In this document: in pieces, positions 9,726 to 12,131 of the stretch
How the letters are laid out: each line of letters begins with the position of its first letter
How positions within the stretch are numbered: the first letter of the stretch is position 1
Virus record (IMG/VR): IMGVR_UViG_3300009031_000221
Location: 384,001 to 448,000 of that record
DNA: 64,000 nucleotides
Strand: one strand, 5' to 3'
From: a virus
Lineage: Duplodnaviria > Caudoviricetes
Program-made: the position numbers and the translations under genes
Notes under the pieces: generated by a model
Database searches by the model: none
Told to the model about the DNA's origin: nothing
Seen by the model: only the letters and a program-made list of their open reading frames with translations

Positions 9726-9788
9726 TTACCACTCCCCACGCATATAGGACTTCAGGTTCCACTTCTTTCCCGTCACATGGTCATTCAT
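9726..9788 (-). pseudogene. Displaced remnant of a release-factor 3' end
   Basis: MNDHVTGKKWNLKSYMRGEW* aligns without gaps to the RF C-terminus HHVTGKRTTAARYMKG. Confidence 0.65.
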
Positions 9789-9821: not shown

Positions 9822-10511
9822 ATGATTACATGCACATATTGCCAAATAGATCACATTGGGCCAGGTAAACTATGTCCTAAATGTGCGGTTGACCGACGAG
9901 ATGCTGCAAAAAGGCATCGGGAAAAGCTAATCCAAGCAGGATTATGTATTCGATGCGGTAAAAACCCGCCCCGACAAGGGCACAAAACATGTATATGTGC
10001 CCCAGAATACATGAAATCACGGTCGGATCGCCTTGCTAAATCTAAGCAATGTGTTGGATGTGCAGCCCCTCTACCCAAAGATGATACGCGGAAATGGTGC
10101 TCTGAATGTAGATCTGATGATGTTGTGCGAAATCAAGAACGCCGAAAGCAGCGCATAACGTCAGGTGTTTGTTTACGCTGTGGAGAAGACAGGCAAGGGA
10201 ACACTGGTTGGTGCCCTAATTGCCGTAGAAAGCTCCGGGATGAGGAACGCAACCTGAAACTTCAAGTTATTGCGGCTTATGGTGGGGCTTGTTCATGTTG
10301 CGGGGAATTGGATCCCAGATTTCTTACAATCGATCATGTGGAAGGGGGAGGATCCAAACATCGTGAGGAAATTAAAGGGAAATTGTATCGTTGGGTGCGG
10401 AACAATAATTTCCCATCCAGCCTTCAAATACTATGTTTCAATTGCAACTGCGGCAGATCCGTCAATGGAGGGGTTTGTCCACACAAGGATCAGCACAAGT
10501 CTTCGATATAG
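9822..10511 (+). mobile_element. HNH endonuclease with N-terminal CxxC repeats, antisense to neighbours
   Basis: CSCCG...LTIDH...LCFNCN; 3' end overlaps the RF 3' end. Confidence 0.85.
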
Positions 10512-11171
10512 CCTTTCATATACCGTGCAGCTGTAGTGCGTTTTCCGGTAACGTGATGGACTACAATATCGTCCTGCATTCGTATGGTGATTGTCTTATC
10601 CCCTCTTGCGCCCCCACCTATCTGACCTTTCCGCACTCCATTAGTTTTATTGTGCCCCTCGGATTTCTGGGATTCTGCTAATCGTGCCCTCAATAGCTGC
10701 ATAGCAGTTACTTTGTTCTGAGTTTGGCTACGCTCTGATTCACACCGGACAAGAGTTCCAGTGGGGATGTGTAACAGCTGAACTGCGGAATCGGTCTTAT
10801 TCACGTGCTGGCCTCCTTTTCCCCCAGCCCGACAATAAGTCCATCGTAGGTCCTTATCCGCTATAGATTGTTCTTTGTCCGAAGGGACAACCAAAATAGC
10901 AACCGTTATCGTAGACGTATGTACCCTGCCCCGCTTCTCCGTAGGAGAAATACGTTGCCATCTATGGCCACCTGGTTCATTCTTGAATAGGTCAGAAGCA
11001 TTTTTCCCGGTCACGCGAATGACGACAATGCCGGGACGATCTTCTACGAGTTCGAGGTCAAAGGAAGTTCCGTTCTGCGTACCGGACATAGATGCCTAGC
11101 TGGTCATAAACCAAACCCTTCGCATCTGCACCACCTTCCCCCGATCTCACTTCAACGATTATAGTTTCCAC
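10490..11171 (-). CDS. Short class I peptide chain release factor (no domain 1), requiring a +1 frameshift at 11061/11060
   Basis: GTG 11171 after AGGGGG gives METIIVEVRSGEGGADAK...YVRYAERNFL, then TGA; the +1 frame continues DLELVED...HRWQRISPTEKRGRVHTS...GGKGGQHVNKTDSAV. Confidence 0.85.
11057..11063 (-). promoter_or_regulatory. Candidate programmed +1 frameshift site CTT TGA C
   Basis: Same heptamer as the bacterial prfB shift site, exactly at the junction of the two RF-homologous frames. Confidence 0.75.
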
Positions 11172-11180
11172 GTTACCCCC

Positions 11181-12131
11181 TTAGATTCCGAGACGCTTGC
11201 ACACCCACCATGCCCAACTCTTGGACATTTTGAAGTGCTTGTTCAGTTGCGATGCTGTCAATCCAGCGGATCGAAGCTGCTTGAATTCTTCCTCCACGGT
11301 ATCAATTTGGCATGATGCTTTATGTTTGATGTTTAGCTTGTATTGGAAACACGGTGGACAAAATGGGCGGATCATTCTTACCAGGTCATTCCGTTGTCCC
11401 ACACGTGCCAAAGTCAAAATGAAGCCCCTTTGATCTGATCTACGATTCACTTTTGGAGTCCACCCATACAAATCATGTAGACGATCACGCAAAAATATGA
11501 CATCGGTCTCATCGAATCCATCCGTATGAAATACCATTCGATAACCGTGGTTGGATGTTGCACCATCACCCCAATACCAGTGGGCTAGGGAGATAGGGTT
11601 AAGGTCTACATCCTTTGGAATGCACTTCACTCCATCTGGGTACCACCGTTTACGTTGCTCTGTAAAGGGTTGGTATTTTCGGGTACGCAACATAACTGTC
11701 CCTTTGCCCTTAACGATGTTTCCATTGATTTGGCTATATCGAGGTTTTCGGATGCTCCGTGTACACTGAATGCCCGCGTTTATGAGTGCCACTTCCACAG
11801 CATCAACCCAACTTTCGTGTACGGGCGTTTGTTCTAGGCATAATCGACCCTCGCTATTTGCACTCAATTCAATCCAAGCATCCCCAAGCAACAAGCCATC
11901 TATAATACTTAGGAGATTCGGATCTATCAGAAATGTCTTATGCCGACCCAGATTTGACGCTTCTGTGGGTGTCCGCAGATCAACCCCCATATTAACCAAC
12001 CTGCGATGTATCGTTGTTCTTCCGACACCAAGTTTTCGACTGATCTCCGCTTCTGAAGATCCCTCGAGGTACATCGCTTGGATGTGATTATCAGGCAGTT
12101 GTTTACTTGGCCTTCCAACAGGATTAGACAT
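11181..12131 (-). mobile_element. LAGLIDADG-family endonuclease with N-terminal HTH
   Basis: IIDGLLLGDAWI and LAHWYWGDG motifs, HTDGF. Confidence 0.85.

Follow-up and report, generated by a model that had tools for sequence, protein, structure and literature searches.

The release factor (RF) gene considered here lies on the minus strand of a 64,000-nt stretch of phage DNA (the window), in two pieces that stand in different reading frames. The question that it raises is whether these pieces form a single gene, joined by a programmed +1 frameshift of the kind known from prfB, or whether they are two genes, a gene in decay or an error of assembly. The prfB frameshift is the textbook example of autoregulatory recoding and has been regarded as specific to RF2; its autoregulatory nature was reportedly described by Craigen and Caskey in 1986. 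The window belongs to a groundwater huge phage, whose virus record of 536,053 bp is rated complete by CheckV, and the gene is the sole RF-domain gene in that record. In bacterial prfB, the +1 site is composed of an SD-like AGGGGG, a 3-nt spacer and the heptamer CUU UGA C (PMC5009743; PMC12421855). The same heptamer ends the upstream piece of the phage gene (ORF0), and the GGQ motif lies in the downstream piece (ORF1).

The features of the locus are given in Table 1. The start codon (GTG, 11171-11169) opens a peptide of 37 codons, METIIVEVRSGEGGADAKGLVYDQLGIYVRYAERNFL; the start, its AGGGGG ribosome-binding site (RBS) and the number of codons, as proposed in the original prediction, are correct in all their coordinates. 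Motifs of the GGAGG/AGGAG type are enriched upstream of the ORFs of the source genome. An open +1 frame extends from 11095 as far as the stop at 10492-10490, and reading CTTT as a single step gives a 226-aa product (P0001) without further internal stop, with NFLDLELVEDRPGIVVIR as the predicted junction peptide. The ATG at which the ORF track begins the gene is probably not a genuine start.

Table 1. Position of the features of the release factor locus in the window
Feature	Position	Strand	Remarks
RF-tail remnant DHVTGKKWNLKSYMRGEW, then a stop	9726-9788	-	Just beyond the HNH gene; a match to the alternative C-terminal tail seen in P0011 and other relatives
HNH endonuclease gene (phrog_2255, E 1e-8)	9822-10511	+	Antisense to the RF gene, 22-nt overlap with the RF stop
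ORF1, +1 frame	10490..11059	-	GAC (Asp38) to Cys226, stop TGA 10492-10490; rest of domain 2, domain 3 with GGQ, domain 4
GGQ peptidyl-tRNA hydrolysis motif, residues 119-121	10808..10816	-	Invariant in the family alignment (A1)
Recognition tripeptide S75-P-T77	10940..10948	-	Aligned to RF1 P184-V-T186
Shift heptamer CTT TGA C	11057..11063	-	CTT 11063-11061, TGA 11060-11058, C 11057
ORF0	11061..11171	-	GTG start and 36 codons, ending on the slippery CTT (Leu37); first strand and helix alpha-5 tip of RF domain 2
CGGAAC, at the place of the SD-like stimulator	11067..11072	-	Half of the relatives have CGGAGG; followed by the 3-nt spacer TTC, 11066-11064
ATG start of the ORF track	11087..11089	-	+1 frame, 26 nt upstream of the junction; would add 10 residues without homology ahead of it
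GGAD, residues 13-16	11124..11135	-	Equivalent of RF1 G116...E119, helix alpha-5 tip; encoded by ORF0 only; from alignment to the RF1 chains of 4v63/4v7p
RBS AGGGGG	11176..11181	-	4 nt before the GTG start; read from the sequence
LAGLIDADG homing endonuclease gene, N-terminal HTH (Pfam LAGLIDADG_2, E 4e-25)	11181-12131	-	Stop TAA 11183-11181, 9 nt before the RF start codon

Judged by profile models and by alignment to solved structures, the joined product is an RF1-like class-I release factor made of domains 2-4 with GGQ, and not an RF2-like one. Homology to release factors had been claimed to extend upstream of the ORF-track start, and the 37-aa piece taken alone bears this out: it matches the RF1 model at positions 105-137 (E 1.5e-4) and the PCRF model at positions 101-133 (E 4.8e-5), aligns to residues 107-140 of T. 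thermophilus RF1 and scores 46.5 bits against the family HMM (positions 1-36). The 199-aa ORF contains the RF-1 domain and covers positions 157-334 of the RF1 model (E 1.4e-51). When the pieces are joined, residues 4-206 of the 226 aa align to the solved RF1 of Thermotoga and Thermus (E 5e-47 and 3e-40) in an alignment that crosses the junction unbroken, and natural in-frame homologues of 222-227 aa align to the product with no gap where the pieces meet. Both the frames and this unbroken homology agree with the proposed +1 slip at 11063-11057, yielding a GGQ protein of about 226 aa, and the fold of the joined protein is fixed by its sequence match to solved RF1.

Domain 1 is absent from this protein. 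The match to the RF1 model begins at position 105 and that to the PDB chain at residue 107, the gene upstream encodes a homing endonuclease, and relatives share the N-terminal METIIVE. The shift site, at codon 37, corresponds approximately to RF1 residue 140 or RF2 model position 150 and falls within domain 2. RF1 models outscore RF2 models for the joined protein, at scores below the RF1 equivalog cut-offs (NCBIfam NF001859, 175.7 bits for a cut-off of 400; TIGR00019, 166.5 for 423). Equivalents of the RF1 third-base residues Q181 and T194 are present, the tripeptide is SPT and not PxT, and the GGQ of domain 3 is retained. Neither PHROGs nor NCBIfam holds a model specific to the short RF family. 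Two other identities were considered and rejected, namely PrfH (89.1 bits against the TIGR03072 cut-off of 166.65, with no adjoining RtcB gene) and ArfB (46.4 bits against the NF006718 cut-off of 100, the match being confined to the GGQ region in a protein that also has domains 2 and 4).

The change of frame does not stem from one faulty assembly. The identical ORF is found on 11 contigs, and two Logan assemblies match the window exactly over the start and the shift site. Contigs from four runs, with depths of 8, 21, 183 and 226, show neither substitution nor indel over 10400-11400; these are Logan contigs from one groundwater study, which may include the source sample, and the independence of the runs is limited accordingly. 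An indel at 11057-11063, the first check called for by the original prediction, is thus absent from four per-run assemblies (8-226x), and given this limited independence the question of error is settled by the comparative evidence.

That evidence comes from a large family. A search with the 199-aa ORF retrieves 1,890 proteins at E<=1e-10, mostly of 175-230 aa. Among the best 120 of these, 97 are truncated calls whose N-terminus crosses the junction and has F at the slip position, corresponding to a +1 reading of CTT-T, 10 are in-frame and full-length (222-227 aa) and 13 begin after the junction; this protein set is independent of the DNA loci below and agrees with them. The DNA of relatives was drawn from IMG/VR, GTDB genomes, GenBank phages and metagenome assemblies, and the gene halves were located with the family HMM. 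The +1 layout, in which the N-terminal piece stands one frame behind the rest, is present at 81 loci, 74 of which are distinct. Every one of the 74 has CTT-T at the junction. The stop that follows is TGA in 53 cases, TAG in 18 (24%) and TAA in 3 (4%), the base after the stop is C at 59 loci, G at 14 and A at one, and positions -12..-7 read CGGAGG at 37, many more loci having another G-rich hexamer there. A scan of metagenomes with a single protein gave mostly canonical RF1/RF2 and added four classifiable members of the family, three with +1 sites and one in frame.

The heptamer alone is common, but its placement at the junction is invariant in 74 diverged homologues (45-73% identity), which argues against chance; likewise, a device kept in more than 70 diverged relatives points to a genuine recoding signal and not to an error. 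An alignment of homologues had been proposed as a check on the need of the gene for a prfB-style +1 slip, and it came out in favour of the claim: CTT-T followed by a stop is conserved at the frame junction, and the closest relatives (L253-L256) keep CTT TGA C. At the level of sequence comparison, a real and conserved programmed +1 frameshift in an RF1-type factor lacking domain 1 is confirmed.

In a maximum-likelihood tree, whose root was placed on the outgroup and not inferred, the short family groups as a single clade (SH-aLRT 99) that is distinct from canonical RF1 and RF2. In-frame members branch from within it at no fewer than four places, and TGA and TAG swap repeatedly between close relatives. 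Because in-frame members sit among frameshifted ones, the frameshift looks ancestral and appears to have been lost several times; from the distribution of sequences it looks like the ancestral state of a large family of about 1,900 database proteins. The idea that a shift device was re-acquired elsewhere in an RF gene is thereby divided: the site is indeed at a non-homologous place, at codon 37 in domain 2, but its acquisition is not a one-off event in this phage.

The +1 loci are carried by huge phages and, at about ten loci, by Myxococcota assemblies, including the finished chromosome of Archangium gephyra (L095). There, RF1, RF2 and an ArfB-like gene are also present, which makes the copy the fourth RF-domain gene; its neighbours encode a glycosyltransferase and a beta-propeller protein, and neither a phage hallmark nor an informative partner was found in its neighbourhood. 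Variation in the family also touches the junction and the recognition loop themselves. Two related loci of huge phages (L011:1311-1313 and L014:1311-1313) have an in-frame stop at the shift-site codon (TAT TAG ATG and CTA TGA CTG, respectively), and would require readthrough or a reassigned stop instead of a frameshift. In the frameshifted L001, L064/L068 and L066, the recognition loop is shortened and has no tripeptide (for example QRTSNGRIHSS or QEKSGGRMQTS), and to judge from these sequences stop-codon reading may be altered or lost.

The locus is very probably one gene, encoding a 226-aa RF1-type class-I factor without domain 1 and expressed through programmed +1 frameshifting. Ribosomes would initiate at GTG 11171 and translate 37 codons. 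At the site, CUU with its tRNA-Leu would then occupy the P site and the weak stop UGA-C the A site. At this point, either a release factor would terminate translation and liberate the 37-aa peptide, or the peptidyl-tRNA-Leu would re-pair from CUU to UUU, after which GAC (Asp38) would be decoded and translation would continue to the stop at 10490. Only the shifted product combines the helix alpha-5 tip encoded by ORF0 with the recognition loop and GGQ encoded by ORF1, and frameshifting would therefore be obligatory for function. The alpha-5 tip reads U1 of stop codons (PMC11903333); since it is encoded in ORF0, a protein begun inside ORF1 would miss a recognition element. On the model of prfB (PMC5009743, PMC12421855), the shifted fraction would be expected to rise when termination at UGA-C is slow, that is, at low RF2 activity in a standard bacterium, and the output of the gene would in this way be regulated by the rate of UGA termination.

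Several explanations would do away with the frameshift altogether. In one of them, the gene is split, the 37-aa ORF0 peptide and the ORF1 protein from ATG 11089 being made separately and either associating or acting alone. Gene callers do give two ORFs here and in relatives, and the ATG is present in the +1 frame; this organization is nevertheless very improbable, as no RBS precedes ATG 11089 and the in-frame relatives have a single uninterrupted chain of equal length. Upstream of the junction, moreover, the open part of the +1 frame can be as short as 9 nt; ATG, GTG and TTG are all lacking from it in 34 of the 74 loci, and ATG in 56, which argues against ORF1 as an independent cistron; nor would two independent cistrons account for the invariance of CTT-T and the stop. 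A decaying pseudogene, inactivated by a 1-nt insertion, would fit a place between HNH and LAGLIDADG homing-endonuclease genes, with a displaced RF tail downstream. It is even less credible than a split gene, given 226 codons without any other stop or frameshift, catalytic and recognition motifs that are all intact, and an interruption at the same codon that recurs in 74 loci of 45-73% identity. As for an indel of assembly or sequencing, or a frame restored by transcriptional slippage, the short T run (TTT) at the site could lend itself to either, but the probability is negligible: four per-run assemblies, of up to 226x, agree without indel, and the site is kept in other phages and in the finished chromosome of A. 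gephyra. Three T are too few for efficient polymerase slippage.

The alternative that deserves most attention accepts the frameshift and denies that it responds to anything. The site would then be an attenuator of fixed ratio, giving a low and constant yield of the factor, perhaps with the 37-aa peptide as a further product, and the stop would serve merely as a slow A-site codon. This would agree with the fact that any of the three stops fills the site, with interchange between close relatives, that the shift-site stop is unlinked to the recognition tripeptide and that the stimulator is dispensable in the L253-L256 subclade. It is unlikely all the same, as TAA, which is read by both host factors, is strongly avoided at the site (3/74) yet favoured at the ends of the same genes (43/74), a contrast that suggests selection at the site for stops read by one host factor only. 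The weak +4 C, in addition, is kept in 59 of the 74 loci, and together the two properties render the site responsive to how much of one release factor is present, as in prfB. Of the two readings of the regulatory role, sensing of the host's capacity for termination and attenuation at a fixed ratio, the avoidance of TAA and the retained +4 C thus favour the former.

Whether a sensor of this kind would also be autoregulatory depends on the stops that the product reads. In RF2, the F207T change (SPF to SPT) is reported to lead to recognition of all three stops, and S205P (PPF) to attenuate the recognition of UGA (PMC11903333). By this tripeptide rule, the SPT factor of the window could read UGA besides UAA and UAG, and if SPT reads UGA a prfB-like feedback loop would close. 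By the same rule, PPT relatives would read UAA and UAG only, and their TGA sites would report host RF2 alone. The tripeptide of relatives is mostly PPT or PPN (PPT, PPN or PKT in the closest ones, P0003-P0010), and SPT occurs sporadically across the family, alongside TGA, TAG and TAA sites. No covariation of the shift-site stop was seen with the recognition tripeptide, PPT being found with both TGA and TAG, or with the GC content of the locus. A stop that does not track the tripeptide, together with the swaps between TGA and TAG, argues against strict autoregulation as the selected function of the family, and simple autoregulation across the family as a whole is doubtful on these sequences. 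A bolder reading, which must be regarded as distinctly unlikely, makes the product an omnipotent UAA/UAG/UGA factor, RF3-independent without domain 1, whose synthesis would be controlled by the speed of UGA termination in the infected cell and which would take over when host RF2 falters; the family would then represent a set of stop-specific sensors (TGA for RF2, TAG for RF1) placed on a spare factor.

One element of the prfB cassette is deficient here. The original prediction had described the upstream stimulator (CGGAAC) as weak, and it is: the 14 nt preceding CTT are predicted to pair with the anti-SD sequence at -3.5 kcal/mol, where the family median is -9.75. The site ranks 66 of 74 and lies within background, since 32% of random windows in the same genes pair at least as well. 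In the family, 64% of the sites pair more strongly than the 5th percentile of background. The resemblance of the element to AGGAAC, proposed as an RBS of this genome, holds in part; AGGAAC is enriched upstream of ORFs (19 observed for 2.6 expected), but the prevailing motifs are GGAGG and AGGAG. The four closest relatives for which DNA could be compared (L253-L256, 63-72% identity) read C/TGG AAC TGY CTT TGA C, and the weak SD-like element is thus a stable trait of the subclade. Folding around and downstream of the site showed no compensating RNA structure beyond that of shuffled sequences (z 0.57). The SD-like element is a major determinant of prfB shifting, and without it the efficiency of the shift may here fall short of that in most relatives.

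The RF gene is bracketed by two selfish genes, the HNH and LAGLIDADG endonuclease genes of Table 1. The LAGLIDADG gene is missing at the corresponding place in the closest relatives, and the relative L253 has the same HNH gene with a longer RF-tail remnant. It looks as if a homing element and a new 3′ end, replacing that of the RF gene, came in together.

The rest of the source genome is rich in translation genes. It uses the standard code, with TGA, TAG and TAA closing 226, 195 and 158 ORFs, respectively, of a crude ORF set. Among its 68 tRNA-like genes is a tRNA-Leu(GAG), the decoder of CUU. A tmRNA gene lies outside the window (G000:C1:225791-226190), as do two genes for the RNA ligase RtcB (G000:C1:234779-236017 and 463333-464388), neither of which adjoins the RF gene, from which they are about 160 kb and 69 kb away. 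With two RtcB genes, a tmRNA and 68 tRNA-like genes, the phage invests heavily in translation repair. Two of its tRNA genes are unusual. One, reported by ARAGORN, is a class-II tRNA of 90 nt with the anticodon UUA, of the ochre suppressor type (G000:C1:483473-483562, minus strand); it has a regular cloverleaf and is isolated, far from the tRNA arrays at 208-259 kb, and many ORFs of the genome still end on TAA despite its presence. The other is a tRNA-like gene with an anticodon loop of 8 nt (read as UGAA; Ser or Phe type) that closes a tRNA array (G000:C1:213498-213586, plus strand).

Shortened and phage-borne release factors have been described in several systems. PrfH (RFH; PMC1586002, PMC6514570) likewise has no domain 1 and keeps domains 2-4 with GGQ, but the present factor differs from it in keeping the RF1-type recognition residues and in having no RtcB neighbour, and a frameshift for PrfH is not mentioned in the literature searched. 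Phage-borne RF1/RF2 in large genomes rich in translation genes have also been reported for huge and recoded phages (PMC7162821; bioRxiv 10.1101/2021.08.26.457843); these reports list RF genes without mention of a frameshift, and the source genome here uses the standard code. The closest viral precedent for recoding is the class-I release factor gene of Mimivirus and Megavirus, which needs both a frameshift and readthrough (Jeudy et al. 2012, PMC3521657), the Mimivirus eRF1 gene being cited as a viral case of recoding in a termination factor (Atkins et al. 2016, PMC5009743). There too, a viral termination factor depends on recoding at internal stops; unlike the present gene, that of Mimivirus and Megavirus is of the eRF1 type, serves in a eukaryotic host and requires two recoding events, and both its sequence family and its signals are unrelated.

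A frameshifted RF1-type or phage release factor was not found described in the published literature, and none appears in the huge-phage, RF evolution, GeneTack or 2025 prfB surveys or in a jumbo-phage overview. A counterpart of the prfB device with UAG and RF1 genes was stated to be unknown in the 2016 review (Atkins et al., PMC5009743). The short family places the prfB cassette in a non-homologous position within a large RF1-type family of huge phages and myxobacteria, in UGA, UAG and UAA versions. In many phages and MAGs, the gene is annotated as a truncated protein of 175-230 aa. The family offers a natural series of variants, in which all three stops are represented and the SD element is present or absent, and in which the contribution of every element can be tested, and it raises the question of whether phages monitor the termination capacity of their hosts.

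The comparison with prfB itself remains the most instructive. The two systems share the heptamer CUU UGA C, the re-pairing from CUU to UUU, the weak +4 C and a class-I release factor as product, and most members of the short family also have a GGAGG-type element 3 nt upstream, whereas the window is without an SD element. They differ in that the phage gene is RF1-like and that its site lies at codon 37 in domain 2, as opposed to about codon 26 in domain 1 of prfB, a domain that is absent here; short-family relatives use UAG and UAA besides UGA, and feedback by the product is putative. The combination of SD element, CUU, stop and C has thus either arisen twice or been transplanted from one gene to another.
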